Below are positions 2,635-59,576 of a DNA stretch of 64,000 bases, in pieces. Position 1 is the stretch's first letter; every line of letters starts with the position of its first letter. This DNA is from Hydrolagus colliei (lineage: Eukaryota): NCBI GenBank assembly GCA_035084275.1, contig CM068757.1, positions 12,214,001 to 12,278,000 of the forward strand, read 5' to 3'. Below the pieces are notes generated by a model. It ran no database searches, was not told where the DNA came from, and worked only from the letters and a program-made list of their open reading frames with translations. The translations under genes and the position numbers were made by a program.

Positions 2635-3289
2635 AACCAAAGAACTGGAACTTCAGAAAAGGCTGAAGGAAGAGGCGGAAAATAAAGCTGTCTATGCTCA
2701 GTGCCGGGCAGAGGAGGCAAAAGAGGTTCTCAGAACCAGCCACGACCAACAGGCCAGGAAGAGCATGGAACATGTGAAGGAAGTTAAGGACGAGGCAGGC
2801 ATCTTGGTGATGGAGGAGACGGTCAAGGTGTTGGGCGGGGTAGTGGCCTGTTCGGAGTGCGCGTCGCTGGAGACCAGGCTGAAAGTTGGTGAACCCGAGG
2901 AACGAGAAAAAAGAATGGAGGAGAGTATGGCAGCTGCTCCGGAGAGCTCTGAGGGGAGAGCTCAGTCTGAAGTAGACAGGGCCAATGAGGCAGAGAGACC
3001 AACGGTGGAGGCTTTGCAGGCAGCAGAGGAAGGAAGGGTAGCAGATGGGGTCCTGATAGAAGAAATGGAGAGGGTGAAGGAAGAAGTCAGGCAGAACCTG
3101 TTGGAGACCAGTGGGAAAGTGACAGAAATGGAACACAAAGAGGCTGGGATGGAATGGATGGTCAACGCACCACATTGTATGACAGGCAGAGGTACAGCGG
3201 GGGTGTTGGACGAAAGCTTGTTTGGCCAAGCCGCAAGCTCAAAGAGCGGGAAGAAAACCCCAGCGGGAAATGTGAGGGAAGGAAAGGAG
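2635..3289 (+). CDS. Large Glu-rich/coiled-coil coding exon (TKELELQKRLKEEAENKA...NVREGKE), putative N-terminal extension of IRAG1
   Basis: Lies within the 256-aa ORF 2615-3385; acceptor ttgttcctgttgcatag, donor gag|gtacgt; 655 nt, phase 2 to 0; purine-rich coding composition, not repeat-derived. Confidence 0.75.
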
Positions 3290-6200: not shown

Positions 6201-6990
6201 TCGCTCCTTTGCTAAAGTCATCTCCACTGGATCCATTGCCGTTTCATGTACCAGCAATGTACACATTTTGCAGAAAGACGTTGGGTTTGATAATACAGCA
6301 GTTTGGAACCTCAAAAGATGTCAATCGTCATTTCGGAGTACTGTACTGGTAACTTAGCAACGGAGGCAAACCGATCGTTGTAACTAATAACGTTGCTTAG
6401 TTTTACTGCTTGAAATTATGATTGTGTCCATTGGTTAGCCTCCAAGCTGTCCTGTGCTGTTGTGTTGAAAGATTTAGACATTGAAATGCATTGAATCTCG
6501 TCAACAATACTGTAATCCTGGCACTCCATATTGGGCCTTAACATGATGTTGAAACATCTCAAAGTGCTCCACAGGAAATATTGTAGATGTGAATGAAAAG
6601 AATTTGTAGACAAACGCAGCAGCCAATTCGAGCACAGCAATGTCGCATAAACACCCGTTGAGTGAACGAACATATTGAGGATTGTCGGCCAGGACATGGA
6701 AGAGAAAACTCCTTTCTCTTTGCGAATAGGGATCTTTAACCTTCACCTGAAACAAGGACCGGCTCTCCAGCAATGAAGCAGCCCCTTCAATGCTGCGCTG
6801 GAGTGTCCGCCTGGACGGTGAGGTTAAAGCCACAACCTTCTGACTCAACGGCCAGAGCGCGACCGACTGCGCCAAGCTGGCCATAACCAATGGTACAGCC
6901 AAGACCACAGGTCTTCTTGTTTCTTACACTGTGTACACACATGTTCATGCAATGAGCTCTAAATGATCTTCTCTTGGCCCTACATCACAG

Positions 6991-7141
6991 TGTATGGGAG
7001 GTGGTCCGTCCCTGGTGGTCCGCACACAGGGCTCTGCAGAAAGGATTGTCGAAACCCTCCGGGAGGAGATCTCGACCACGCACAAGTGGGACCCACCACT
7101 AACAAACAGCAGCCCACAATCAGAAGACAAGATAACAGACG
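6991..7141 (+). CDS. Coding exon (CMGGGPSLVVRTQGSAERIVETLREEIS...SEDKITD), putative IRAG1 extension
   Basis: cacag acceptor and g|gtgagc donor; 151 nt, phase 0 to 1, fitting both neighbours. Confidence 0.6.
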
Positions 7142-8788: not shown

Positions 8789-8853
8789 GAAGCACCGAGC
8801 CCAGACAACCGGAGGGGGTCGGTGGAGACAGGAATGACAATAGCAAAGTCAAG
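8789..8853 (+). CDS. Coding exon (GSTEPRQPEGVGGDRNDNSKVK), putative IRAG1 extension
   Basis: tgacag acceptor and aag|gtatgg donor; 65 nt, phase 1 to 0, bridging 7141 to 30794 in frame. Confidence 0.55.
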
Positions 8854-18122: not shown

Positions 18123-18663
18123 CTAAATATAGGCTGTGCTAATCTAAACTATTAGCAAATTCTTTGCTAAACTTAATTCTTTTTTCCAAGAGAAATAAGA
18201 TAAGAGGATGTGGAGGAATTTCATTTATGGGAGCTTATTTGTCGTTCAAATTGAAGGTGGTGGTGGTGAAGTGTTGGGGGGGGGGGGTTGTGGGGGTAGG
18301 TGGGGGGGGGGGGGGGGGGGAGTCTGTGTGTGTGTGTGTGTGTGTTGGGGAGGGAAGTGGGGAGAGAGCGAGAGAGAAGCAGATGCTTGTTATATAAAGT
18401 TTAACAATTTTTTTTTCTTCTTCTTAGACGTTTTGTTTGTGTCGCTTCACTGAGCCAAAAGTTTCAGATGGAACAATGACCTTAAATGGTAAAAGCTCCC
18501 AGGAGTGAGAGAGAGGCTGCTTCTCAGAATAGCAGGAATTAAGTCAGTCGGTTGTAGGTAGAGGTTTTGATGTGAATAAGCAGGGATCCATCCTAGTGTT
18601 TGATCTGCCGATGGGGGCTGCTTGGGGACACGGCTCTTCCTAAAACGTTGGCTCCTATAAAGG
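18123..18663 (+). promoter_or_regulatory. Candidate internal muscle-type promoter: MEF2 site CTAAATATAG (18123-18132), TATATAAA (18391-18398), CArG boxes CCTTAAATGG (18480-18489) and CCTATAAAGG (18654-18663)
   Basis: Exact consensus matches read directly. IRAG1 is a smooth-muscle/platelet gene. ATG GTA AAA GCT CCC (MVKAP) at 18486. Confidence 0.65.
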
Positions 18664-21600
18664 TACAGTACTGTTTTCAAGGTCAGTGCAAGGAAACTTG
18701 TAGAGGCGAGAGAGACTTACTGATTGCAAATCAACCAGCTTGCCTCAACAACTAGTAAACAATGCATAAAGTGTAGCAACAAAATCAAAATGTTGTTTTG
18801 CTTCTCGTTCAGTTGCTGCTTGTATTAGGAAGTCAGTTCTGTGGTTTTCTCTCTCTCTCTCTCTCTCTCAACCCCCGACTTTCACTACCCTCCTGTTCCC
18901 TGGAGGGATATGCCTCGACCTAACTGGAAGTTAGTTGTATGCATGCCTGTGTTTTTTTTAAACAGAGAGAAAGCATTGAGATATAAAGCAAGGAAGATTG
19001 TGCTTTAAGAGGAGTTTTTTTCCCCAAGCCCTGCTGCCTGCCTGCCGCAAACATCTGAATATTGAAATGCAACGGGGGGGGTGTCATGTCCCCTGGCAGG
19101 GATGGCAATAGGTACGGTCACCATATGTCCCATATTTCCGGGGACAGTCCCTAGGCTGTTTCCCTGGGACCAAAGAGTGCGCTGCCTTGTGTTCAACAGC
19201 AAACTTGAGCAAGGAGCCATACAATTCTAAAATAGACACAATCATGAGAGAAACCCAGCCATTAATCCAAGTTTCCTATTAATCTCCAGTGACTGCCAGC
19301 ATCAAAACTTGTGGTGAGTTCAATTTTCTTTCATTCATGTGCGTTCCTGGATTTGATGTACAAAATACTGTAAGGAAGACACACCGTTTGGGTTCCAGAA
19401 TCTGTAAACTTCAAGACCGGATAATCTGCTTTCCCTTTTCAGATCCTTGTAGCATAGTGGTTAGCGCACTTACCTTGCAATCTGGAGGACCTGGGTTCAA
19501 TTCCTGGGCAGTGTGAGATCTTAGACACGTTTCCTTAATCCACATGCTCCTGTTTCCTAGCAGTAAATAGGAACCCGTTTGTTAGCTAATTAATGGATTG
19601 GTAATAATCCCTCAATCTACAAGTGTTTGTGGGACACTGCTGTGCACAATTGACTGACAAGTCTCTCCCACAAAAAGATTAGTTAATCCGCTTTACAGTA
19701 TAGTCTGGAAAACATTTTGTGACCTCACAGCAATGTGATAAGGTGCTATATCAAATGCAGATGCATAAATTAATGCTGTCTGTTTTACTGTCATCTTAAT
19801 TCAGTGCAATATTGACTGCCAGGTACCCTAGCAGGGAAACTGGTAGAATACATCTGTTATGGCTATCATGCCAGTGAGGGACTTTGTATTTAGTAATAAT
19901 TTAACATGTCAAATTAATTATTTCAGATGTGGATGTTTTTCAGTGCGAAGGGTGTTTTTTACTTGGAATAACTGCTTAAAAATAGACATGGACAGTATCC
20001 ATCTCTTTAGACTCATTTCATTCATGTTTCCGGCACAAGCAGAAAACTGCCAGTGTTTAAAGACGAGTAGAGCAGCAGGTTTAACCCTGGTTCAGCGTGT
20101 GATTCAATGCCTGCTATTGTTGGAACTACAATAACAACAATAACAAAATTAATTTGTATAGTGCCTTTCACGTCGAGACGTTGCACAGTCAGTGTTTCAG
20201 ACCCGAGCTGGGAGAGGTCGTGAATGGCGAGGGTGGAGGGCAGGGGGGCAAAGCTGGGTGATCAAAAGCATGGTCAAAGAGGAGGCTGTTGAAGGAGGCA
20301 AGGGAGGGTGGCGAGGTGGAGGGAGGCGAGGTGGAGGGACTGTGGGATGGAGTTCTGGAGGTGGGAGCAGAGAGACAGAAGGCCCACACGCCAGTGGTGG
20401 GACATACAGTTTTGTTAAATACAACAGAGTCACGTAGGGCATTCTTAGAGGGAGTTTCTCATTCCCAGTGTCCTGACAGTCAATGCCCCCGGGTAAAATC
20501 ATTCATTCACTTCCTGGCTGTTTCTCGGATTTTGCTCTGCACAAATTGGCAGCTAAATTGGCATACAAAATAGTCACTGCATTTTAGAGTAAATCCTGTG
20601 AAGTGCTTTGAGGTGTCCTTCTAAACACTGAGCTACAGGACTCCACTTTATCCTGAGTTCCTGACCTGGTTCATAAAATCCTAGGGAGTAGAGGCTTCCA
20701 TTTGGGACTCAGGACCTTTTATTGCTCTTTCCAGACTAAATGCGTGTGTTTGTAGAGCACAGATGGGGCGGGGAAGGGATGTGGTCGCTGTCACCACCAC
20801 AAGAAATGACTTGTGTGTAGCACCCACCCTCCCCCCCCCAATAGATATAAAATAATCTATTTCAGACAGTCGCTCCAATATCAAAATATCATGGATATTT
20901 CAATACAATGCATCCATTATCTGCGTCCAACAAGCCGACTTGTTAAGTGTCAGCTAACTAGTGAGTAGCTGTTAATGTATCATATATACCCGATATGCCC
21001 ATGGGTTGGCCAATCACAAGGTAGGCTCCAAAAGACCTGTAGAGCTGCTGTCAACAGGAACATGTCTGCAGACTGAGCTTTACTGCAGAGAAGCTGTGGA
21101 ATGCTCCCGAGTACAGCAGCAATCCTTGAAATGTATACAAACCGTAAAAATATTAGTCTTCCTCGCTGCAGATTTATAATAACAGCAAACAGGGGAGTTA
21201 TAATAGCAGGAGAGTGAGTTGTGTTGCCAGCCATGATGGTTGAACCTAAAGTGCTGGGGTTTTGGTGAGAGACTTGGTGGTTTGAATCCCACAGAAAGTT
21301 GTTGCCCTGTGCCTCGCTCCTTGGTAACCCTTACTAAAGGGGTTACATTTAGAAAGGTTTGAACAGTTTAGTGAAGTAAGTCTAGAATGAAATCAGACTC
21401 CCAGCAAATACAATCAATGCAGCGTTTAATTCAACCTATTCAATAGGAGGTGAATAAATGTTTGGGTTGAAGGGTATTGAAGGGTACAGAGCTCAGGTTG
21501 ATATGATACAGCCTCCACAACAGACGGTAGTTCCACTGGTCGGAAGGAGATGGGTGGGCATTATAACAACAGGTCGACTTGCTATAATATACTTTGCATT

Positions 21601-21679
21601 TTATGGTTCGCCTATTGTTGTTGTGACATCTCAAAGAGCTTCCCAGGATATACTGCAAGGTAACTGTGTGCTCTATAAG

Positions 21680-21812
21680 TCGGGTATTAAGGGATACGGG
21701 GAGAAGGTGGGAAATTGGAATTGAAAGGATTTGTAGAGGTGCAGATCAGCCAAGATCTAATTAAATGGTCGAACCGGCTCAAAAGGCTAAATAGTGTACT
21801 ATGTTCCTATGT
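21680..21812 (+). mobile_element. 3' end of a second CR1-type family (ctatgttcctatg tail)
   Basis: aagggatacggggagaagg...gatcagcc...ggctcaaaaggctaaat..., typical of shark CR1 3' UTRs. Confidence 0.6.
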
Positions 21813-23470
21813 AGGCGAATGTGACAGACAATTTGCACTCAGCAATGCCTATCAAACAGCCATGGAGAATTAACCAATTTTATCTGGGGCACTATTGTTC
21901 AGGACATCTGGATAGACTCCCTTTTCCTTGACGAAAATCTTTATGGTTAACCAAATGGAACAAAATGCCGGTATCTTCGTGTTAATATTAATTGCACCGC
22001 CAGCTGTAAAATATGCTCTAATAGACCTACAGAGAATGGGGGCAGAGAATCTGGGTTGAATCGTGGAGTCTAGATGTGGGGATTTTCTCTCAGTGTAAAA
22101 TTACACCAACACGGACTGGTTGGGCCTAACGTCCTGTTTCCATATTGTACAGTTTGTGTAAATCTATGAATATTCTGGTGCTTTTTGCTTTGGAAAGCTG
22201 AGGGAAAATGGTCTTGAAGGGTCTTCTATATTTGAAACTTCCTTTGATCGTCTTGGTCAATCAGAGAACATGTGTGAGTTACCATTTCCTAGGAGACTGG
22301 GAGTGTGCGTGTGCATGTGTGCCATGTGTGTGTGTGTGGAATGGACTATAAAAAGGATTCTGTGCAGTCTTTGTGATAAGATACAATGTTCTTTTTTTGC
22401 TCTGTACCTCCTCATGTTCTTAAAGGAAATATGACCGAAGAGATAGAGAGTACAGGCAGGAAGCGAAACAATCTGTTTACAACCCATTTTCTAGTCTTAC
22501 AGGAAGGGACTCCTCTCTCAGAAATACTAAGATAGAGACTTATATTGTTAGTAAGCATTGTTGAGTTCTGTCGAAGGGTCGTGGACCCAAAGGTTGACTC
22601 ACTTTTCCTTACTCCATAGATGCTGTCTGACCTGCTGATTGTTCCCAGCTACTTCTGTTGAAGCACTGTTAATGATAATGATGATGACAATAATTTGTGT
22701 ATTTGATTCAGCATTGTTCAGGTCAGGAGGACATTTCAAAGCCCTGCACCTGATTTGACTATAAGGTGTAGCGTCTGTGTAGTTTGGAGACAAAAATAAT
22801 TACCGTGAATTGCCCATTTGCAGAAATGAAACTGCCTATCTGTCTGTCTTTCTGTCTGTCCATCTATCATATATTAGCAGAGTTGCTACCCTGTTGTTAT
22901 ACATACATAGTACTGTAGTAGGGTTTATACCAACAACAACATAGTTACATTTGTGTAGCACATTTCATGGCGGCAGGATGACCCAAAGCATTGGCCATAC
23001 AGTATTCTGGACCCAAGCTGGGCATTGGGGAGGTGGGAGGGTGGAGGACATGGTGTGCTGGGGGAGGAGGTTGATCAATAGCACGGTCAAAGAGGAGGGC
23101 CTTGTCGTGGGTCTTGAAGGGGGTGAGGGATGTATGTTACTATACATCTATTACGTATAAAGCAGCTAATCCGTGCTTGTGATGGATCTTAAACAACAAT
23201 ACGACAAGTTGCAAATTAATCTGAATCTGCCACCAGCTGAATCGCAAGGCAGACAGAGCCCAAATAAATTAACACTGGAAATAAATAAGTGACTTGTGCT
23301 CAATAGTGTGAGACAAACAGAGGCATAAATCAAGAGTGACTAGGGTAGGGGATGGGGTGGGACACACACACACATATTGTCTTGTATACCATACCCTGCG
23401 TTCACATTGTTGATGCTGTGTTCGCTTACAATGTCATCGGTTCACGAGGCAAAACAAAACCAGAATGGGG

Positions 23471-23545
23471 GTCGCCACGGCAACGGTCTTAGCGTAGCTT
23501 GTCCCAATCAGTCACCGCTCTAATCGGGAGGGCGCTGCATTGGCA
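23471..23545. promoter_or_regulatory. RFX X-box (GTCGCCACGGCAAC) plus CCAAT (23504-23508), a GC-box-like GGGAGGGCG and ATTGG
   Basis: Motif cluster in a locally CpG-richer, non-repeat patch. Confidence 0.45.
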
Positions 23546-26500
23546 ATACACTAGCACACTGGGCTCTGTGTGGGTGCCCGTCCCTCGACCCCATCCCCTT
23601 CCCCAGTACCGCTATCCAGAGGTCAGGGTTGTTTAATCCAAAACTCCTTCTCCCCGTGATTTTGTTTTCTCGGGGTTGGGTTGGGTGGTGGAGGGGGAGC
23701 AGGTGGTGGATGGGGGGATGGAACCGATAACGTAATCGCAATTTTCTTTTCAAATGTAACCTTCGGTTTGAGAAAGACCCGGGTTCGATTCCTGGGCAGG
23801 ATGAAACCTTCGGCAAGTTTCCGTACTCCACACGCCTCAGTTTACCTAGTAGTAATTAAGAACCCCAGTTGTTAGTGGACTGGTGGATTGCTCTTCTGAG
23901 GGAAATGATCACTCAAAAAAAAATGTGTTTACTCAACCGATGACTGTGTCTGCTAGGCTTTTACCACAAAGCACAGTTAGTCCTCTTCACAATATATAAC
24001 AACAACAACAAAATTACACTTGTATGGCGCCTTTCACGTCAGGAGGATGTCCCAACTTATTATTATTAATATATAACCTCAAGGATTAACCGGAGAAAGG
24101 AGCGGCCATGGAGGGAGGTTACAGGAGATGAGGAGAGAGAGCTCATCGGAGAATAGGGTGAGAGATGAGGAAGAGGTTAGAGCAGAGGGAGATCACTGGA
24201 AAACCACAGTGAATTGCATTTATATATTGCCTTTCATGCACTTCATGCTGAGCTGTGCTGCTTGCAGGGAGTTCCTGATATCTGACAACCATGTAGTGAG
24301 GGCTCAAACTCACACTTGTCGGCTATCTAATGACCGATACCATGAAGCACTTTGAGGATTATTGATGATTATTCCTTAACAAAATAACACGTAGATGAAG
24401 CTGAGGATGAGACATCTGCGTGGCAATGGAAGAGGGTCAATAGAAACTTTACAGCATAATGTCCCCCCCTCTGACCAGAACTTGGTCAAAACAGAATTTG
24501 ACCAGAACACTCCCAGTTCAAATGACTCCTCGCGGAATTTTGCAAATGGCCTGCTGCCTTTTCCTACAATAACAAGATGCCATCTTGAGATGTATGCAGA
24601 GACAGGCAAAATAATTTTTTTAAGTGAGATTGAAAAAGTAAATCAAGATTCTGTTAGGTATGGTTTCCAGACACCATTAATAATAATGCCTCAAAAAAAA
24701 CAATAATAATTTGTGGGACACTGCTGTGCGCAATTGGCTACTGTTTTGCCCACAAATATAGTCAATTCACTTTACAATATATTCTGTGAAGGCCTTTGAG
24801 ACGTCTAGAAGACATGAAAAGTGCTGTAGCACATGCAAGGATTATTATTATTATTTTGTGAAGCACTTTGTGACTTCCTTTCGGGTGAGCTTCCCTTCAC
24901 ACTGTAAACTGGTTGGCAGAACTACATGGAGGGGAGAGTTAGAAGATCTGAGCCATTTTGCAGGATAAGAAGGGCATTTGCCATGTTGTTGAAGACTGAC
25001 TCCCTAATAATACTATAACAAACAAAAATAATCTCAATTTTATTTGAGCATGAGCATGCCCCAAGGCAGGACCGTTTGTTTTCTTTTCTGCCCTGATTGG
25101 GAAAGATATGGAACAGACAGTATAAACCAGGCTCTCCTCTCCCCACCACATCCCTGCCGGCAACCTGGTCTAATGGATCCAGTATAATGTCATATGGTAT
25201 CTGCCATGTGCGATACTCTCCTTGATTGTTAGTGCACCATGATTGAGGGTTCCCAAACACAGCAGCAATGAGCTTTGCAAATATTGTATACAAGTTGTTG
25301 TTGTTATTGCAAATCCCTTGCCTCCTCAAGACCTTCCTCTTCGACCGCGCCTTGTGAAGGTCAAAACATCTCAAAGCTACTTTGTAGGTATTTGCTGTCG
25401 AGTGAAGTGACTATATATATATATATATGCAAATTCAGCAGCCAATGTGCGCACAAGAAACCTCCACAAACAAACATGAGGTGAACAACCCAATTTATCT
25501 GGAGGACTGTTGACCTGGGCAGGGTAATGGAGCAAGGTGGTTGTGTTTGAAGACATTGGACTTATTTAACAAATAGCTTGGGTCAATTGTGGTGAGAAAA
25601 AGAGACCTTTTTGTTTGTGTTTACAATGAGAAATCCCACTGATCTGCATACGCGCTGTCAGATTTCAGTCTGCGTCTTTACATTTGCCCATTGTGCACCG
25701 CCTGTGGTTCGAAATGTATTCGTTGTATCACCAAACCTCTCCTTCCATCGCCCACTGCTTGTTGTAAGTGCTAAACTGGGACGAGTGGAGGGAGAGAGCA
25801 CTGCAGCGATTATCAACAGCGCTCGAGGCAGCAAACCTGTTCTGGGATATTATCCAACAGTGTCGGCCGGCCGGCTTCTCTCTGATCCCCTCTTTGTAAG
25901 TGTCTCTCTACATGTACAGCGCGATTAAACAGTCCAGGGCTCTTCAGTCTTGAGAGAAGGCGCTTTAGCAGGTGAACCCTACAGAGGTGTGTATTGCCAT
26001 TTTAAATGGAGTTGGGGAAAAAAACAGAACATTAATTTAGCATACACCAAGACTAGATAACAAGAGGACACGGGTTTAGAGTTGGAATGGGGGCAATTTC
26101 AAGATACACAAGATAGGCAAAGGAAGCTTTTCTTTACCTGGAAGGCAATTAACAACTGGAGCAGCTTGCCCAGAAAGAGGCCTGGACGTTGGGACTCATT
26201 TTTTAAAAAGCAGCTCGATGCTGTGTTGGAATGATGGTAGTGTGGTTATTTTGAGATCAAATGAGCTGAACCAACTTTCTCATCCATTTCTGACCTTGTG
26301 AACCCGAGGAAGTGATTGTTAGTTCAGTAGTTTAGCTACTCTGCACATTGGCTCTATGCAAACCGAAAAGCTGGCTTTATTATGTAATCTGTTTAATTCT
26401 GGTCATGTTACATGTCGTCTGTGTCAAAACTATTGTACAAAACGTTTAAAAAAGATATTTTAGAAATAATAATAAATTGGTCGTTTCAATCCATGATCGG

Positions 26501-28196
26501 TTGTGGGACAATGCTGTGCATAATTGGCTGCCCGTTTTTCCCACAAAATATAGTCAATTCACTTTACAGTATATTCTGTGAAGCGCCTTGAGATGTCTCG
26601 AAGACATGGTAAGGCGCTATATCAAATGCAAGGATAACATTATTATTATTACGTCTTTGAAACTTCTCAAAGTGCTTCACAGAATAGGCTGTAAAGTATT
26701 GTGACAGTGTGTTTTGTGGGCAAAATACAACAGCCAACTTTGCACAGTAGTATCCCACAAGTAGTCGTGGGTTCGAATGATCCAATTTTCGTTTTTGGAG
26801 GGATTCCTAACCCTGGAAAGTGATCCGCCAATTGACTAACAACCAGGTTCCTACTCACTGCTGGGTGAGTATGCAACTTACTTGCATTTATATAGTGCCG
26901 TTCTTGCAGGATAGTGTCTCAGAGCTCTATGAATTTGATCTGCTAATGTAGTGCAATAATTCTTGCTGATAAATCACAAGAATAAAAGGAAGTGATTTGT
27001 GCTATTGTTCCGTAGCAGTGCTGGCCCAGTCCATCAGAGCTAACAAGCCGTCAAATTTATGACATGTCTATAGCCAGGTTTATTATAATATCCTCTTCAT
27101 TGGGCTAACTGCACATAAATAAAGGCACCTGCATGCATTTGAGGATTCTCTACATAGAAATTCCCTTAATACAGTATTCCGATCCCTAACAGAGCTATTC
27201 CTAGAGTACTGTAACAATAATAATCCTTTCATTTAATATAGCGCTTTTCACGTCTTCTAGACGTCTCAAAGCGCTTCACAGAATGTACTGTAAAGTGAAT
27301 TACAGGTGAAAAGCAGCAGCCAATTGTGCACAGCAGTGTCCCACAAACAGTCATGGATTGAAATGACCAATTTTATTAAGATGTGTTTTTTGGAGGGATT
27401 ATTATTAGGCATGTGGATTAAGGAAATTTGCCCATGGTTTCACCCTGACTTGCCTGTAGCTCAGGGGTTAGAGCACTCGATTCTCAAGTAAGAGGCCTGG
27501 GTTCAATTCCAGGCAGGATGAAACCGTGGGCAAGTTTCCTTATTCCACACATCTGATAATAATCCCTCAAGAAAAAAAAAATAATTTGGTCACTTCAATC
27601 CACAACTATTTGTGGGAGGGTCACTGCTGTCCGCAATTGGTTGCCGCGTACGCCCACATATATGCAGTCAATTCACTTTACAGTATATTCTGTGAAGCAC
27701 TTTGATCCGTCTAGAGGACGTGAAAAGCGCTACATCAAAAGCAAAGATTATTATTATTATCCCAAATCAGATGACGCATTCTCACGTATTGCATGATCAT
27801 TGCGGACTGCAAATGGCTTAGGAAAAAACATTTTCTACAGATATTTTCTGTGGTTATAGCAACCGCACACCACGTTTCACGATGCGTTGGATCCTGCCAA
27901 GAAAACGCTTTGCTACAGCTCGTGATTAAAGAGTGGGCTTTAGAGTGGCGACTGAATTGTGCTACAAAAATAAAGACAATCCCAGGTTGTGTAGCCGAGC
28001 GGGATTTTATGAGGTGCAGATGAGATTGTACATTTACGACACTAATCCACAGTTATTGCGATGACTTGAGAGACGCTCATTGTCTATGAATGTAAGAAAT
28101 CCGCACAAAAACAAAACTTGCATTGATATAGTGCCTACATGTAAGGGAATCTCTCACTTCACAGGGAGGAGGGGAGAGGACTGTTTGCTCGTGTGG

Positions 28197-28284
28197 TCCC
28201 CTTCCTCCTCCTCTTCCATCTCGCCCCACTCCATCTTTAAAGACAAATGGAGTGGGGCGAGATGGAAGAGGAGGAGGAAGGGGA
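28197..28284. repeat. Perfect 38-bp inverted repeat with a 12-nt loop
   Basis: 28197-28234 is the exact reverse complement of 28247-28284. Confidence 0.95.
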
Positions 28285-30793
28285 GTTCCAGGGATTAGGA
28301 GTGTAATTGCTGAAGGTTTGGTCACCAATGGGTGGGATGGGGACATGGGATGCACGCACAATAGGCTCGCATTTGCTGATCGGGGCCATCAGTGGCAGGG
28401 TGGGGGTAGGGGTTGAGCAGAAGAGTAGAATTCTGTAGGTGATGACAAAAGTGGGTAAAAGTGAAGATCTTGATATTGATCGGAAGACAATAGGGGCTGG
28501 CGGGGACACTTAAAACAGTTTATAAAATGTACCGGAAGTCTTGAACAGTCCAGACTATATATACGCACACAGTACATCTTTACACAACCCCCAAATACAA
28601 ACCTCTAGCCAAGTGGAATTCCACCCACTTCTTTGCCATGCTAAATATATGGCAAAGAATTGCAAAATGGTATGACTCAACAGGCAGTTCAGAATTTGAG
28701 AATGAATGGCATTCTGCCCTGAGAAGATAGGGTGATATTTGTTTGAGTCTGAAACCCGCTTTAATTAGTCTTGGCTGACTTCTAACCCTTTGGAAAGAGT
28801 TTACAATCCTTTATTTATGGCAGCACTCAAACCACGATCATGGCAACAGGGGAGTGTCTCAATGCTTTTCTTCCCTCCCTCCCGTCTCTCAATTCTACTT
28901 TTATTTGTCCACCCAGCTGCGCTCACTTCCTGTTCCATGCATCCTTACTGCTTTGACATTAAAGCAACGTTGTATAATCTCCTAATCTAACCCAGTTAAA
29001 GACCCTCTTGGCACTATTCAAAAAGAGAAGGGAGTTTCTCCCGGTATCCTAGCCAACATTCCCCTGAATAAAATTGGTCATTGCATTTCCCCTGCTGTCT
29101 CCCATCACTCACTTTGTGTGACTGTTAATTGCTAGAACAAGTGAGAAATCAACAAGTAACTGCACTCAACAAAAACAACAACAAAATTACATTTGAATAG
29201 CGCCTTTCATGTCAGTAGGACGTCCCTGCATAATAATAACACAAGGGAAACCCTCCACCGATCGGTTCTCTATAGCATTGCCTCCCTTAAAGAACAGGTC
29301 TACTGTGGACCCTTGCATACACCTGGATTCCGAGACTGAGTAACTGGTTACACATGTTAAACAATGGGTGATCAGGACTTCACTTCCTGCGCTTTGCATT
29401 CTATGTGTAAGGAGTATCGCTCATGTCACTTTTTGCGCTCTATGCGCTAGAAGTGCTGCCAACATCATCTCACAAAGGAAGCGACATCAGCAGTGCTTCT
29501 GGCTCGCAGGGCGCATATATGCAATGGGCAGGATGTGATGTGGAGCGTGGAGTCCTGTAGCTTAGTGCTTAGAGCACTTGCTCACCACCGAGAGGACCTA
29601 GGTTTGATTCCTCGTCAGGGAGAAACTTCAGACGAGTTTCCTTATCCACACTCCTCTGTTTACGTAGCAGTAATTAGGAATCTGGTTGTTAGTTGATTGG
29701 CGGATTGATTTCCTGAGTAAACTAACGCCTTCAAAAAAATTATTATTTGGTCACTCAATTCATGACAGTTTATGGCACACTGTGCTGGGTGCCATGTTTT
29801 GAACTCCACCTCTCATTTCTCACTAGACCTGTTCTTCAAGGGAGGCAGTGCTGTGGAGAAGGGAATGGTAGACGATTTCTACTGCGTTATTATTGTGACT
29901 GAGTGCAGTTAATTGTTGTTGCACTCAGCTGACCACAGTAAAGATAAATATCGCGCAGTCTTTACCAAACACAACGAATATGAAGTGCAGTGAATGTTAT
30001 TACGTAGGCCAACGGGACAGTTAATCTGCGCCAGCACTGTCTTAAGCAAATGACATCTTAAGTATCCTGGCTCAGCGGTGCGGTAATGTAATTTGAATCC
30101 TGCTCAATACCTTGGCACAACTTCTGCGCATTCGTCAAAGTGACATTTTATTGGTCATAAGTGTCTTATTGGCACATCCCCTTGGAATCACTGGTGAACT
30201 ATTCACGTCCGGGGAATGTTTGTTTCAGACTCCAAAGACGTAAGGACGTGAACTGTAAGCATTGGATTAGACCGACCGAGACTTGTGCAGAGGCTGTGGC
30301 TATGAATTCTGTCTATGTGATAGCAGGGAAGGAGAGAAACGTAATAGGTGCATAAGCCCAGAGCGCAGACAGGATCCTCGAATTGGAGCATTAAACAACT
30401 GTTCTCCATTGAAATTCTCATCCAAGTGATAAAGCAAACTTTGCAGTTGTCCAACAGATTAGTGGGGAATGGGAGATCTGTTGCTGTGGGAGTGGGCTTG
30501 TTGAAGGCGTTGGTGATATTAAAGACATACAAGATCCACAAATATACCTCTGGCTATTAAACCAAACAGCAATACCAGTCATACCTCCAGATGTGCCTAT
30601 ATATTTTTGTTAAAATCCTTATTAGCTGACTTCCATCCAAATGGAGGTTGATAGTCAGTTAAGGAGTGAAATGTTAGCCGTTGTTTTAGGATACGTGCCT
30701 TTGTTTGACAAGTTTCACTGGCGCGGGAGGCTTCCCTGACTGAATGGTTCTCCTAAACATTCCTAATCCATTGTTTTTCCTCTTTGGATCCAG

Positions 30794-30905
30794 AAACCAG
30801 AGACTGATGTCCGGACTTCACCCCAGGAGAGCTTTGGGAGAGCACTAGAGGTCCAGGCTGGCCAGTCATTGGGCCATGGCCACTCAACACAGCAGGCTCT
30901 TCTAG
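30794..30905 (+). CDS. Coding exon (KPETDVRTSPQESFGRALEVQAGQ...QQALL), IRAG1 N-terminal region
   Basis: Branch-like cctaat, pyrimidine tract and ccag acceptor; tag|gtaacc donor; 112 nt, phase 0 to 1, open. Confidence 0.65.
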
Positions 30906-31402: not shown

Positions 31403-31538
31403 ATGCCTTTACTCTTGAACCTTCTGAGACTCATCAGCCGTCGGGAGGCCAAGGAGATCTGAGACCATCGTCGCTGGGCCACAAGGCGACTGTAGCAAGA
31501 TCTTTTCTTGCAGAGAACCACACACAGATCCCAAACAG
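31403..31538 (+). CDS. Coding exon (DAFTLEPSETHQPSGG...HTQIPNR), IRAG1 N-terminal region
   Basis: cttaccag acceptor and cag|gtgaat donor; 136 nt, phase 1 to 2, open. Confidence 0.65.
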
Positions 31539-32524: not shown

Positions 32525-32636
32525 AAATAACTCAGCCGTGAGCATCTCTGAGTCGCAGTCCGAGGAACGGGCATCAGAGGGACTCAACCCCATAGCCAGG
32601 AACGCACAATCCAGAGAACCCCCAGCATCAGACGAA
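32525..32636 (+). CDS. Coding exon (NNSAVSISESQSEERASEGLNPIARNAQSREPPASDE), IRAG1 N-terminal region
   Basis: Long T tract plus aaag acceptor and gaa|gtaagt donor; 112 nt, phase 2 to 0. Confidence 0.65.
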
Positions 32637-33300
32637 GTAAGTCTGGAATCGCCTCATTTTCCTGCTCGCAGAGTGTGGATCCATAAGATGGTACCAGATA
32701 ACTGTGGAACCAGCATCGTTCAAATGCTTTATCCAAGTATGGAAAACGTCTCTGAGGGATGATCACTTCCTGGAGTGTGTGTGTGTGTTGTCTGTGTGTG
32801 TGTAAGCAACAATAATAAATTGGTCACCCAATCCACGATTGTTTGTGGGACACTACTGTGTGCAATTGACTGTTGCGTTCTATCTACAAAATCCACTGTT
32901 ACTCCACTTTACAGTATATTCTGAGAAGCACTTTGGGATGCCTTATGACGACATAAGGCACTATATCAAATGCAAGGTTGAATATTGTTATTATGTGTGT
33001 GTGTGTGTTTTTTTTACTGTGCAGAATTCTGTAAGGGTTGGGAAACGACCCGTTTCATTTTACTCTGCTGAATTCAGTTCCCAGCTGATAGCTTAGAGCA
33101 ACACATCAATCCCCTCCAGAAAATCCGACTGACACATTTACATGTAACGACAGCAGCATTCATTGAGATAATGCCCTTCATGTCAGGGCTAGTGTCTCAC
33201 AGTTTACGAGGTGGTGAGGTTGGAAAGCGGGTGAGGGTGAAAGGGAGAAGCTGACCTTAGATGTGGTCAAAGAGGTAGGTCTTCAATTGGGATTTGAAGA

Positions 33301-34397
33301 TAGATTAAGTGGATAATTAGACAGAAAGCAGAGAGTTGTAGTGAGCGGCTGTTTTTCAGATTGGAGGGAAGTGAGCAGTGGTGTGCCACAGGGATCAGTT
33401 TTGGGACCATTGCTGTTTGCAATCTACATCAATGATCTGGACTTGGGTGTACGGAGTACAGTTTCCAAGTTTGCAGATGACACTAAGTTAGGGAGAATAG
33501 TAAATAGTGAGGAGGATAGTAGCCATCTGCAAGAGGATATAGACAAATTGGTAAAGTGGGCAGACACATGGCAGATGAAGTTTAATGCAGAGAAGTGTGA
33601 GGTGATGCATTTTGGGAGAAGAAATGAAGGGAGGCAATATAGGCTAGATAGTAAAATTTTAAATGGTGTGAAGGAACAGAGAGACCTGGGGATTTGTGTT
33701 AGTGACTCGTTGAAGGTGGCAGGACAGGTAGACAAGTCTGTTAAAAAGGCATATGGGATACTAGGCTTTATAAATAGGGGTATAGAGTACAAAAGTCAGG
33801 AAGTGCTGACTAACCTCTATAAGACTTTGGTGAGGCCTCAGCTGGAATACTGTGTTCAATTCTGGTCACCACACTACAGAAAGGATGTGAAGGCATTGGA
33901 AAGGGTACAACGAAGATTTACTAGGATGGTGCCAGGATTGAGGGACTTCAGCTATGAGGAGAGGCTAGATAGGCTAGGGTTATTCTCTCTGGAGCAGAGA
34001 AGATTGAGGGGAGATCTAATAGAGGTTTATAAGATCATGAGGGGTTTCGACAGGGCAAATAGAGAAAAACTATTTCCACTCATGGGTGAATCTGTGACTC
34101 GTGGTCACAGATTTAAAATAGTTTCAAGGCGAAGTAGAGGGGAGCTGAGGAGAATTTTTTTCACTCAGCGAGTTGTTCGAATCTGGAATGCATTGCCTGA
34201 AAAGGTGGTGGAGGATGATTCGATAACAACTTTTAAAAGGGAATTAGATCTTAATTTAGGGAGAACAGGTCTATTAGGCTATGGGGAGCGGGCAGGGCAG
34301 TGGGATTGAATCGCTCTTTTCAAAGAGCCGGCACAGACTAGATGGACCGAATGGCCTCCTTTTGTGCCGTAAAATTCTATGAATCTATGAATCTATG
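33301..34397 (+). mobile_element. 5'-truncated CR1-clade LINE with an uninterrupted 322-codon RT/C-terminal ORF2 fragment (33341-34309) and 3' UTR
   Basis: GVPQGSVLGPLLFAIYINDL, FADD and LVRPQLEYCVQFWSP motifs; (AATCTATG/ATTCTATG)n tail; nested in an older antisense L2 fragment. Confidence 0.95.
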
Positions 34398-35564
34398 AAA
34401 AGTGAAGGCAAAGTGGAGGGTATTGAAGAAGGTTGCATCAGAGGTTAGGAGTGTAGTGAAGGATGGTGGTGCGGAAGGGTTACATAACATAAGGGTAAAA
34501 TAACAACAATAAAATTACTCTTATTGAGCGCCTTTACATCGGGAGGACATCCCAAAGCGCTGGGGACACATAGCAGGCTTGAATTAGCCTTTTGGCTGTT
34601 AGGGACATTACCCTATGCAAATCAGCTACCACTTTCTCCACACAAAATATATACGGTAGTCACCACACCTTGCAATAAATCCTTTGAAGACTTTGAGATG
34701 TCTTGCTGATGTGAAAGGCATAATATCAAAGGCAACTATTCTAAGGATTATCATTAAAGTCCCCACATTGTTTAAATTCCTCAACATAGCTTTGTGGTAC
34801 TTGCTGTTAAGCGCAGTGACTGGGTTATCTGTGGGCCTATGAGGATCTGAACCGGGACCTGATAAGATAATTACTGCTTTTCCAACTCTCTGCACTTCTG
34901 CTCTGGTACTAGTTTTACAGCACTCCCACCAGAACAGGCACAGAACATCTCAAGATGGCTAGAGTCCTGTGCCTCACAAGCAAAAGATCTGGGTTTGATT
35001 CCCGGCAGGGCAAAACATAGATCAAGTTTGCTTACTCCACAAGCCTGATAATAATCCCTAAGAAAAAAGCAATAATAATTTGGTCACTGAAATCCATGAC
35101 TGTTTATGGGATGCTGTTGTGTGCAATTGGCTGCCGCATTTCGCCCACAAATATACAGTCAATTCACTTTACAGTGTATTTTGTGAAGTGTTTTGGGATG
35201 TGAAAATCCCAAAGTGGACGTGAAAAGGTCTATATCAAATGCAAGGATTGTTATATTATATTTATATTATGGATGCTTGTTGCCGTTGAATAGCACAGAA
35301 TTCGTCAGGCAGTCAGTTGCCTTGCATTTTGCATTTGATACAGCACAATCCCACGTCATTGAGATGTCTCAGACTAAACCGTAAAATTGATTGACTGTAT
35401 TTCATGGGTGAAACACAGCAGCCAGTTGCGCTCAGCAGTGTCCTGCAAACAACCATAAACCAATGACCAATTTTTGCCAAGTGGGTCAGGGAATTTGAGC
35501 GGTTTATGTATTTGTTATAAGTTCAATCCTAATTGACGTCTGTCTCCTTTGTGCTCCGCTGCAG

Positions 35565-35774
35565 CTCCCGGAGGAAGAAGAGTCAACTCTGGGCCCGTCG
35601 CTTCGATCCTTGTTGACTAGTTTGCCCTTGCTGCAGATCGGCTCCTTCAGCCCACTTGGTGGCAGCCGTGCCCAGTCTCCGCACTGCATCACACCCCCTG
35701 CGATGCCGACCTTGCCCGAGGAGGAGGAGGGTGGAGAGGGACGAGGAATGAGCGAGCAGAGCCCCCTGACTGGG
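35565..35774 (+). CDS. IRAG1: IRAG1 exon containing AMPTLPEEEE (cf. mammalian AMPHIPEDEE; candidate short-isoform start Met at 35703)
   Basis: ctgcag acceptor and ggg|gtaaga donor; 210 nt, phase 0 to 0; motif similarity to the IRAG1 N-terminus. Confidence 0.82.
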
Positions 35775-38942: not shown

Positions 38943-39484
38943 GTAAGAGAACAGCTTCAAATTAAGAGAAGACAGTTTCTCCCTTGCGATTCTCACGCCC
39001 GACAATCCCCAAAGTTAAAAAAAATTGGCCATTCAATCATCGCTGTTTATGGGATATTGCTGCATCCAGTCTGCCCCAAAAATACACAGTCACACCACTT
39101 TACAAGTGTGAAGCACTTTGAGATATCTCGACGTCGTGGTAAGACAATGTTCAAATGCCCTCCGTTCGACTGGTGCTGTCCTGCTCCATGTCCCTTTTCC
39201 CTTCAGAATTTCTGCCCCCACAACCTTTGTAACTCCAATCCCAGAGCCCCTCTGCCTCACGCCCCCTCCCTTGCCTCCTTCAAGGCCCCTCTCAAGACCC
39301 TCCTCTTTGATCATGCCTTCAGCCACTCTCCCCCCTCACCTCTAATGACCTCTTGATCCCAACCACTAGATTGCGTGCAAACCCTTAACTGTCCAGAGCC
39401 TTGGGACGTCCTCCCGAACTGAATGGCATTGTATAAACGTAACTTGTTCTTGTTGATGTTGATGTGGGTTTTCCTTGGCAGCAG

Positions 39485-39658
39485 ATGGCGATGGCCACGT
39501 GTATGATCTATTGAATGACGAGCTCCCAGATGTGGATCTGTCGGATGATGACAAAAAGAAAAACACAGAGCTGCTGGAGGAGGCCAAGAAGGTCAGCGAG
39601 AGGTTCCTGTCCCGCCGGAGCCGCCGGTCCAGACCCAGCCTGCCCGAGTCACCGACAG
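39485..39658 (+). CDS. IRAG1: IRAG1 exon with the PKG-Ibeta-interaction segment ([58 protein letters not shown])
   Basis: Strong similarity to IRAG1 [49 protein letters not shown]; tandem cag|cag acceptor (alternative start 39482); g|gtaggc donor. Confidence 0.95.
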
Positions 39659-59329: not shown

Positions 59330-59576
59330 CAAGCTGGAAGAAGTCTCGGACCTGGTCGACAGACTGTGCCCGAAATGCTTGAAGCATCGGAACGTGGTGT
59401 GGATTCTGGCGGTGGCAGTGATCCTCTTGGCAGTTGTGATCAGCATATTCACGTCTCTCCGTTATCCCTGTGATGACCCGACGAACCCGCCAAATGGCAA
59501 GAGCACGTGCTCGGCCGTGCAGCAGTACCTGTGGGCTTACTCAGGAACCCGACACAAGAACCGCGCACCTGTGTGA
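59330..59576 (+). CDS. IRAG1: IRAG1 terminal coding exon: TM helix (VVWILAVAVILLAVVISIFTSL) plus luminal tail ending YLWAYSGTRHKNRAPV*
   Basis: Pyrimidine tract plus cgtag acceptor; SKLEE...STCSA matches IRAG1; TGA at 59574-59576. Confidence 0.96.

Follow-up and report, generated by a model that had tools for sequence, protein, structure and literature searches.

The IRAG1 locus and its long intron

The stretch of DNA analysed here, referred to as the window, comprises 64 kb of the 1.0-Gb genome of the chimaera Hydrolagus colliei (C24:12214001-12278000). A tblastn comparison with a 1619-aa model from Callorhinchus milii (P0018) placed exons of IRAG1 (MRVI1) on the + strand from position 1426 to position 59573. 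The gene was recognised as IRAG1/MRVI1 by the PF05781 exons on C24, by the chain of exons and by the C-terminal anchor, and the exon at 39484-39657 is 90% identical to C. milii IRAG1 and 76-84% identical to the genes of rays and sharks. The last coding exon (59330-59576, + strand), which carries the IRAG1 membrane anchor, was assigned by tblastn with P0018 together with a domain search. At the other end of the gene, the same model matched long-form exons at about 1426-1613, 2635-3289 and 6970-7141, all on the + strand, and a final long-form exon at 8789-8853 that ends in a phase 0 donor, as judged from the tblastn match and its flanks. Next comes an intron of about 22 kb (8854-30793), which is an exon-free gap in the P0018 comparison. 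Past this intron, comparison with P0018 gave + strand exons at 30794-30905, 31403-31538 and 32525-32636, the acceptor at 32525 being placed by reading the window sequence against the model. The + strand exon at 35565-35774 carries the conserved short-form start MPTLPEEE (ATG at 35703), and 155 of the 451 proteins fetched for this study (described below) begin there.

The region of interest, 18123-18663, lies inside the 22-kb intron, as the initial annotation of this DNA had stated. A contig from sequencing run X1 is identical to the window over 18358-18836, with no base differing, and the sequence is therefore not an assembly error. Run X1 behaves as DNA, its depth being spread across introns and repeats, and a sequencing-run search with the last IRAG1 exon listed no RNA run. 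Elsewhere in the window, positions 33300-34400 hold a high-copy repeat with very high depth that resembles, by eye, the 3' part of a CR1-type LINE, and many SINE-like copies are scattered across the window.

A cluster of motifs within the intron

Direct reading confirmed each of the motifs that had been reported in this region. These are a MEF2-type motif CTAAATATAG at 18123-18132 (strand-neutral), G-runs followed by GT and GA microsatellites on the + strand at 18276-18320, a candidate TATA box TATATAAA at 18391-18398 on the + strand, and two perfect, strand-neutral CArG boxes 174 bp apart, CCTTAAATGG at 18480-18489 (CArG1) and CCTATAAAGG at 18654-18663 (CArG2), which are the only two in the whole 64 kb. 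CArG1 includes the ATG at 18486 as well as an in-frame TAA; this ATG opens an 18-codon ORF, MVKAPRSEREAASQNSRN*, at 18486-18542 on the + strand. The GT sites at 18505 and 18543 are likewise present. CArG2 contains a TATAAA (18656) located 29 nt upstream of an initiator-like TCAGT and overlaps a donor-like AAG/GT; 14 of the 71 TATAWA sites in the window carry such an initiator by chance.

To judge these counts we used windows simulated with an order-3 Markov model (300 runs) as the null. Perfect CArG boxes were expected 5.4 times per 64 kb, and a pair no more than 200 bp apart occurred in 22 of the 300 simulated windows (0.07). Strict MEF2 sites were expected 1.0 times and seen three times, and TATAWAWR on the + strand was expected 19 times and seen 28 times. 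The motif cluster taken alone is therefore weak evidence, no more than chance would give. The proposal that MEF2, TATA and twin CArG boxes act as one module did not hold, as these counts are at chance level and the orthologous teleost DNA described below has CArG1 only.

Conservation of CArG1 and the overlapping start codon

A scan of a metagenome collection with a pattern combining the CArG box and the MVKAP codons led to one teleost locus, L006 (contig MDSQ01001500.1), which is teleost genomic irag1 DNA filed in that collection. It was identified as teleost irag1 because its translation contains the N-termini of the models from Mastacembelus and plaice (tblastn matches to P0228 and P0236, E 1e-19 and 2e-27); its synteny was judged from 3 kb, and it is the sole non-chimaera DNA ortholog compared here. 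By blastn, L006 aligned to the window over 58 columns with 88% identity (E 2e-13). The most conserved part is a 42-nt core on the + strand (18480-18521), consisting of CArG1 and a purine-rich tail, in which 40 of the 42 bases are identical: all 12 bases outside the search pattern agree, as do 13 of the 15 at the degenerate columns of the pattern. CArG1 itself is identical in L006, and a perfect CC(A/T)6GG is thus conserved in one outgroup sequence, whereas L006 has no second CArG box, no TATA box and no MEF2 site at the matching places. The conserved unit is therefore CArG1 plus about 30-45 bases behind it.

At the wobble positions, 10 of 12 bases are the same in chimaera and teleost. This exceeds what the peptide would need, so that the constraint looks regulatory, with the ATG being retained within the CArG box. 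Moreover, the frame behind MVKAP is not conserved, which argues that the constraint acts mainly on the DNA and that the ORF is likely to be an upstream ORF (uORF) in this species. Judged by this alignment, the CArG1/MVKAP core can be taken as real and ancient, unlike the wider MEF2/TATA/twin-CArG module.

The combined CArG and MVKAP pattern has four matches in the chimaera genome itself. One other match (L002) is similar to the core over 22 bases only, and L003 and L004 showed matches to repeats among the matches listed. Scans of the genome_contigs and viral_contigs collections returned six short microbial or viral loci matching over at most 20-21 bases, which were taken as chance. A bacterial promoter scan of the element, a method not applicable to such DNA, gave nothing, and Rfam returned a single sub-threshold lncRNA match (13.5 bits vs 55). 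The predicted RNA structure of the core is weak (-6.7 kcal/mol), and with 1 of 13 pairs compensatory across two sequences it gives no support for a structured RNA.

Orthology to the mammalian MVKAP exon

The 451 proteins came from searches with a platypus query (best 120 of 757 hits) and a bowfin query (best 120 of 770 hits) and from cluster look-ups. This set includes four LYVE1 proteins and fragments, its ortholog entries are automated gene models, and it is a sample without lamprey, lungfish, coelacanth or invertebrate forms. A start at MVKAP was found in 54 of the 451 proteins (49 eutherian-type, 2 marsupial and 3 teleost), and these models continue into the exon that carries the conserved MP..PE start. 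The eutherian-type models have 22 codons ending in NSVL, followed by the exon with MPHIPE; the two marsupial models read MVKAPQSGREAG; and in the three teleost models, from Mastacembelus and Channa, the first 12 residues equal the MVKAPRSEREAA of the window. The initial annotation had cited a human isoform beginning MVKAPQSEERL. This wording applies to non-primate eutherians but not to apes and monkeys, which read MVKAPQSEGRL; the human MVKAP isoform itself is not among the 451 proteins.

A profile of the 22 eutherian residues ranked 18486-18537 first over both strands, 128 kb in all (39.1 vs 36.3). For residues 6-12, the window DNA fitted the eutherian peptide better than 397 of 400 random intron sites and the marsupial peptide better than 400 of 400. 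With a back-translated eutherian DNA profile the site was again the top one, but its score of 25.6 compares with null maxima of 22.3 +/- 1.8 in 25 simulations, the highest being 26.8, and the portion of this profile after SE alone failed to find the site. The DNA profile being marginal, it is the teleost and marsupial links that make the orthology firm: the element is placed upstream of the MP..PE exon, its sequence is homologous, and the teleost and marsupial models bridge it to the eutherian ones. The suggestion that this is the ortholog of the mammalian first exon was thus borne out, and by protein models rather than by mammalian DNA the element is best regarded as orthologous to the mammalian IRAG1a start exon.

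SRF binding, 5' ends and function in mammals

Mrvi1 is said to be among the validated SRF targets of a 2006 CArGome paper, and we take the human bins at chr11:10,693,553-10,693,614 to be the MVKAP exon. According to the supplementary tables of a human smooth-muscle myocardin study, these three adjacent bins are shared, in the 5' direction, by 8, 7 and 6 transcripts, and the decrease in their relative use is larger the nearer a bin is to the 5' side, with log2 values of -0.74, -0.88 and -1.15 (PMC9343278). The 8/7/6 pattern fits staggered starts, being what such starts would produce. In mouse MEF, Tables S1 and S3 of PMC5179500 list an SRF ChIP-seq peak whose summit falls within Mrvi1, 332 bp from its RefSeq 5' end, a position given relative to that 5' end and not to the orthologous CArG box; this peak has 42 reads vs 12 in the vehicle line and is DNase-positive. 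Mrvi1 appears in mouse gut smooth-muscle tables with 61-118 FPKM (PMC4524680 supplement). The accessible part of PMC8818726 yielded no exon coordinates. No paper naming both Mrvi1 and CArG was found in the literature searched, and that search, with most subscription journals outside it, turned up no account of the conserved CArG/ATG element and none of a long IRAG1. The element is real and apparently undescribed.

The two mammalian proteins IRAG1a (911 aa) and IRAG1b (859 aa) differ in their N-termini, according to the text available of a review (PMC10298018), and the 52-residue extension of the 911-aa eutherian models agrees with this difference. In mouse, the extension ahead of the conserved Met was reported to potentiate HCN4, the active peptide being the MG-type extension that ends just before the conserved Met 44 (PMC13131473, available text). 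The segment of about 30 residues ahead of that Met is also present in the eutherian MVKAP models. Species with a closed MVKAP frame would, by this reasoning, lack the HCN4-linked segment from the MVKAP exon.

A putative internal promoter and first exon

Taken together, the element is the chimaera ortholog of the IRAG1a 5' exon, and we consider it probable that it combines an SRF-type internal promoter with a first exon, carrying a uORF, of the short IRAG1 transcript. In this species, SRF, probably together with myocardin or MRTF, would bind CArG1, and transcription would begin tens to a few hundred bases upstream of it. With its 3' end at 18662 or 18681, the exon would be spliced to the MPTLPEEE exon at 35565, either directly or via the exons between 30794 and 32636. 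The initial annotation is on the whole partly supported in its interpretation.

The predicted 3' end of this exon was derived with a donor position weight matrix (PWM) built from 30 mapped donors of the IRAG1 gene, which have a leave-one-out median of 4.1 bits. The GT sites scored 4.6 bits (18682), 3.3 (18663), 3.1 (18489), 1.1 (18558), -1.2 (18505) and -2.0 (18543). The best candidates are AAG/GTACAG (intron from 18663) and AAG/GTCAGT (intron from 18682), which lie on the + strand at 18660-18687 and fall within the top 2% and 1% of intronic GT sites, respectively. The donor previously proposed at 18543, with -2.0 bits vs the median of 4.1, is not supported.

The 5' side can be read in two ways. 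The place near 18420, where transcription had been expected to start, is also the top-scoring splice acceptor of the intron: at 18401-18427 on the + strand a branch-like TTAAC and a pyrimidine tract precede an AG at 18426-27 that scores 11.1 bits, the best of 1482 intronic AG sites, compared to a median of 3.7 for 31 mapped acceptors. This stretch could be an initiator region or the acceptor of an exon starting at 18428. If it is an acceptor, the element would be an internal exon running from 18428 to 18662 or 18681, serving either within the 5' UTR of a short transcript, as its second exon behind a start further up the intron, or as a stop-carrying cassette that silences the long transcript; the TATA-like word would then be AT-rich intron before the branch point, and CArG1 an exonic enhancer. 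Joined to the phase 0 donor at 8853, such an exon reads 26 codons to a stop. L006 also has an acceptor of 5.9 bits, 118 nt upstream of its CArG box, and no TATA near the core. An internal exon is the main rival reading, though we regard it as clearly the less likely one. No fetched long model matched it when the 260 residues before MP..PE were compared, and the models that hold this exon have their start codon in it. Furthermore, the human bins resemble staggered 5' ends, the mouse SRF peak lies at an annotated 5' end, and a T-rich tract before any AG scores high in a small PWM.

A longer gene around the element

Open exons matching the long models of rays reach about 16.5 kb upstream of the window, and EF-hand_9 and KASH_CCD hits upstream of the window are in frame with MRVI1. 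The EF-hand exon scored 33.5 bits, under the cut-off of 37, because the domain is split over two exons. In a Pfam analysis of 16 queries, EF-hand_9, KASH_CCD and MRVI1 were found together in eight long models, from skate, sawfish, halibut, tilapia, salmon, sturgeon and two alligators. The chimaera genome also holds a paralog at C13:9320007-9366528 (L018, L022 and L023) in which EF-hand, KASH_CCD and MRVI1 follow in order within 47 kb, with a membrane anchor and the C-terminus PPV. This locus is IRAG2/LRMP-like and represents a long gene of the type of zebrafish Fue; no copy of the CArG core was present in the 20 kb examined of its approximately 47 kb. EF-hand and KASH_CCD are encoded not only here but also in the models of rays, teleosts and alligators and by the IRAG2-like paralog, so that the long form is probably ancestral, and two paralogs with one layout point the same way by parsimony, rather than by a tree. 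The view that short IRAG1 starts within a longer ancestral gene is thus supported by the long-form exons, the eight long models and the C13 paralog. No mammalian long form was among the fetched proteins, the two broad searches covering proteins under 1500 aa.

These data bear on whether the locus might instead comprise two genes, a KASH5-like EF-hand/coiled-coil gene and IRAG1, joined only by model read-through, in which case the element would be an ordinary IRAG1 promoter. Some RefSeq annotations do split the locus at the 22-kb intron (P0408 and P0293), the upstream halves of these alligator and cichlid models ending where long models cross it. Against this, the 8853-30794 joint is phase-matched, and the same junction peptide occurs in all five cartilaginous-fish long models checked. 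The split models are without the membrane anchor and run into the intron. The C13 paralog and zebrafish Fue, moreover, share the long layout, the latter as far as described in the accessible text of PMC3787381. Two separate genes are therefore an improbable arrangement. RefSeq calls the upstream half of the split locus 'IRAG2-like' in the cichlid and the alligator (P0293 and P0408), which hides the long IRAG1. In five further models (P0016, P0245, P0406, P0413 and P0414) IRAG1 is fused to a protein that has a Link domain or bears the name LYVE1, probably a neighbouring gene merged by annotation.

The reading frame behind the conserved ATG

In the window the MVKAP frame closes after 18 codons with a stop at 18540. 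It is closed at 35 codons in L006 and continues without a stop in Mastacembelus and Channa; in the plaice model the exon is translated in the +1 frame. The eutherian EERL corresponds to the +1 frame of the window, with the best fit obtained by one extra base in the fish DNA (an indel cost of 6 vs 8 mismatches), and the marsupial models stay in the fish frame (REA) and arrive at NSVLG after equally many residues. From this we infer that two single-base indels in eutherians offset each other. Indels together with donor choice would have put the ATG in frame in therians and some teleosts, giving an N-terminal extension. In the chimaera the MVKAP frame does not run on into the main ORF as it does in a coding first exon of the IRAG1a type; the stop at 18540 leaves the MVKAP codons in frame with downstream exons only via the donors at 18489 or 18505.

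The earlier proposal of a uORF fared well, as the good downstream donors leave the MVKAP ORF closed at 18 codons. The ATG, which has T at -3 and G at +4, would survive largely because it is part of the CArG box and, opening a frame of just 18 codons, would serve as a leaky uORF, with the protein starting at 35703. Two further short uORFs (3 and 10 codons, 18468-18508) start just upstream of the MVKAP ATG, and their ATGs are absent from L006. A transcription start at the TATAAA/TCAGT of CArG2 (18654-18690) would bypass the uORF.

The other option that had been put forward, splicing from 18505 in phase 1 to the exon at 31403, would have MVKAP translated here too, as would splicing from 18489 to 30794 or 35565. 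These joins are in frame and reach MPTLPE, 18489 scores 3.1 bits, and both L006 differences within the first 12 codons are synonymous, but the search pattern itself forced differences into wobble positions. The donor at 18505 scores -1.2 bits here and -3.5 in L006, where 18489 falls to -0.7, and ortholog models read through both sites, the 18505 region being read through in teleost, marsupial and eutherian models alike. Nor is 31403 supported as the next exon, since the ortholog models that begin in the MVKAP exon join the MP..PE exon (here 35565). The exon at 30794-30905, which precedes 31403, had been left out of the initial annotation. Finally, the annotated short forms of C. milii, white shark, basking shark, smooth-hound and Mobula hypostoma start with MPTLPEE. 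Translation of MVKAP in the chimaera is accordingly improbable. Common motifs might also have come together by chance and the peptide match be fortuitous; the motif counts near chance and the four occurrences of the pattern in the genome would allow this, but the identity with L006 extends past the pattern and IRAG1 models of three vertebrate groups start with the peptide, so that chance, whose probability we regard as negligible for the whole, is refuted for the core and holds for MEF2, the G-runs and CArG2.

Relation to known systems

Internal promoters of smooth-muscle genes driven by SRF/myocardin through CArG boxes are exemplified by telokin inside MYLK. As in promoters of this type, a CArG box lies here within the intron of a longer gene and likely drives a short product. 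Unlike them, the conserved CArG box lies inside the transcribed exon and holds the start codon, and the second CArG box is not conserved. CArG control of smooth-muscle genes is textbook knowledge, and long models already exist in RefSeq as automated predictions, so the degree of surprise is moderate.

With respect to mammalian IRAG1a/IRAG1b (MRVI1), the chimaera has the same gene and the same MVKAP exon, but there the MVKAP codons meet a stop after the eighteenth, and the exon is embedded in a longer gene that is intact. The EF-hand/coiled-coil extension is known for zebrafish futile cycle (Fue)/Lrmp and has been likened to KASH5 (Horn et al., PMC3787381, accessible text): in fish, EF-hand and coiled-coil precede the MRVI1 protein, whereas mammalian LRMP (IRAG2) is short. 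The C13 paralog shares this layout; IRAG2 ends with the KASH-like PPV, and IRAG1 in this genome ends with RAPV. The EF-hand_9 and KASH_CCD N-terminus is likewise common to long IRAG1 and the adaptor KASH5/CCDC155, whose EF-hands, according to the part available of PMC10071310, bind dynein LIC and recruit dynein. KASH5 is without the PKG-binding region of IRAG1, and dynein binding by long IRAG1 is putative. The short IRAG1 and IRAG2 proteins each look derived from a long EF-hand/coiled-coil gene with KASH5 as a relative, and fish, rays and crocodilians may therefore make an unstudied dynein adaptor from IRAG1.

A wider scenario, which we offer tentatively and as more doubtful than the promoter itself, is that long IRAG1 was ancestral in jawed vertebrates as a KASH5/Fue-like, ER-anchored dynein adaptor, and that the smooth-muscle PKG substrate of mammals is its internal-promoter product. 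The switch would be a CArG box more than 400 million years old holding an ATG that was first a uORF and later the IRAG1a N-terminus. Given that in mouse HCN4 is potentiated by the residues preceding the conserved Met, whether a lineage or tissue makes HCN4-modulating IRAG1 would then depend on the frame of the MVKAP exon and on which start site, before or after the CArG box, is used. Apart from this scenario, the element provides IRAG1, which is central to NO/cGMP signalling in smooth muscle and platelets as an effector, with a candidate core regulatory element shared by chimaeras and bony fish, and it offers an origin for the two mammalian N-termini. It also illustrates how a binding site for a transcription factor can preserve a start codon that later became coding in some lineages.

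Outside the IRAG1 and IRAG2-like loci, a third EF-hand/KASH_CCD locus that is KASH5-like was found at C43:51251-53152 (L019 and L021); with the C29 locus named next it may form one gene divided by the assembly, or the two may be separate paralogs. Two MRVI1-like coiled-coil exons of a third locus lie at C29:3261265-3263017 (L024), on a contig different from C43.
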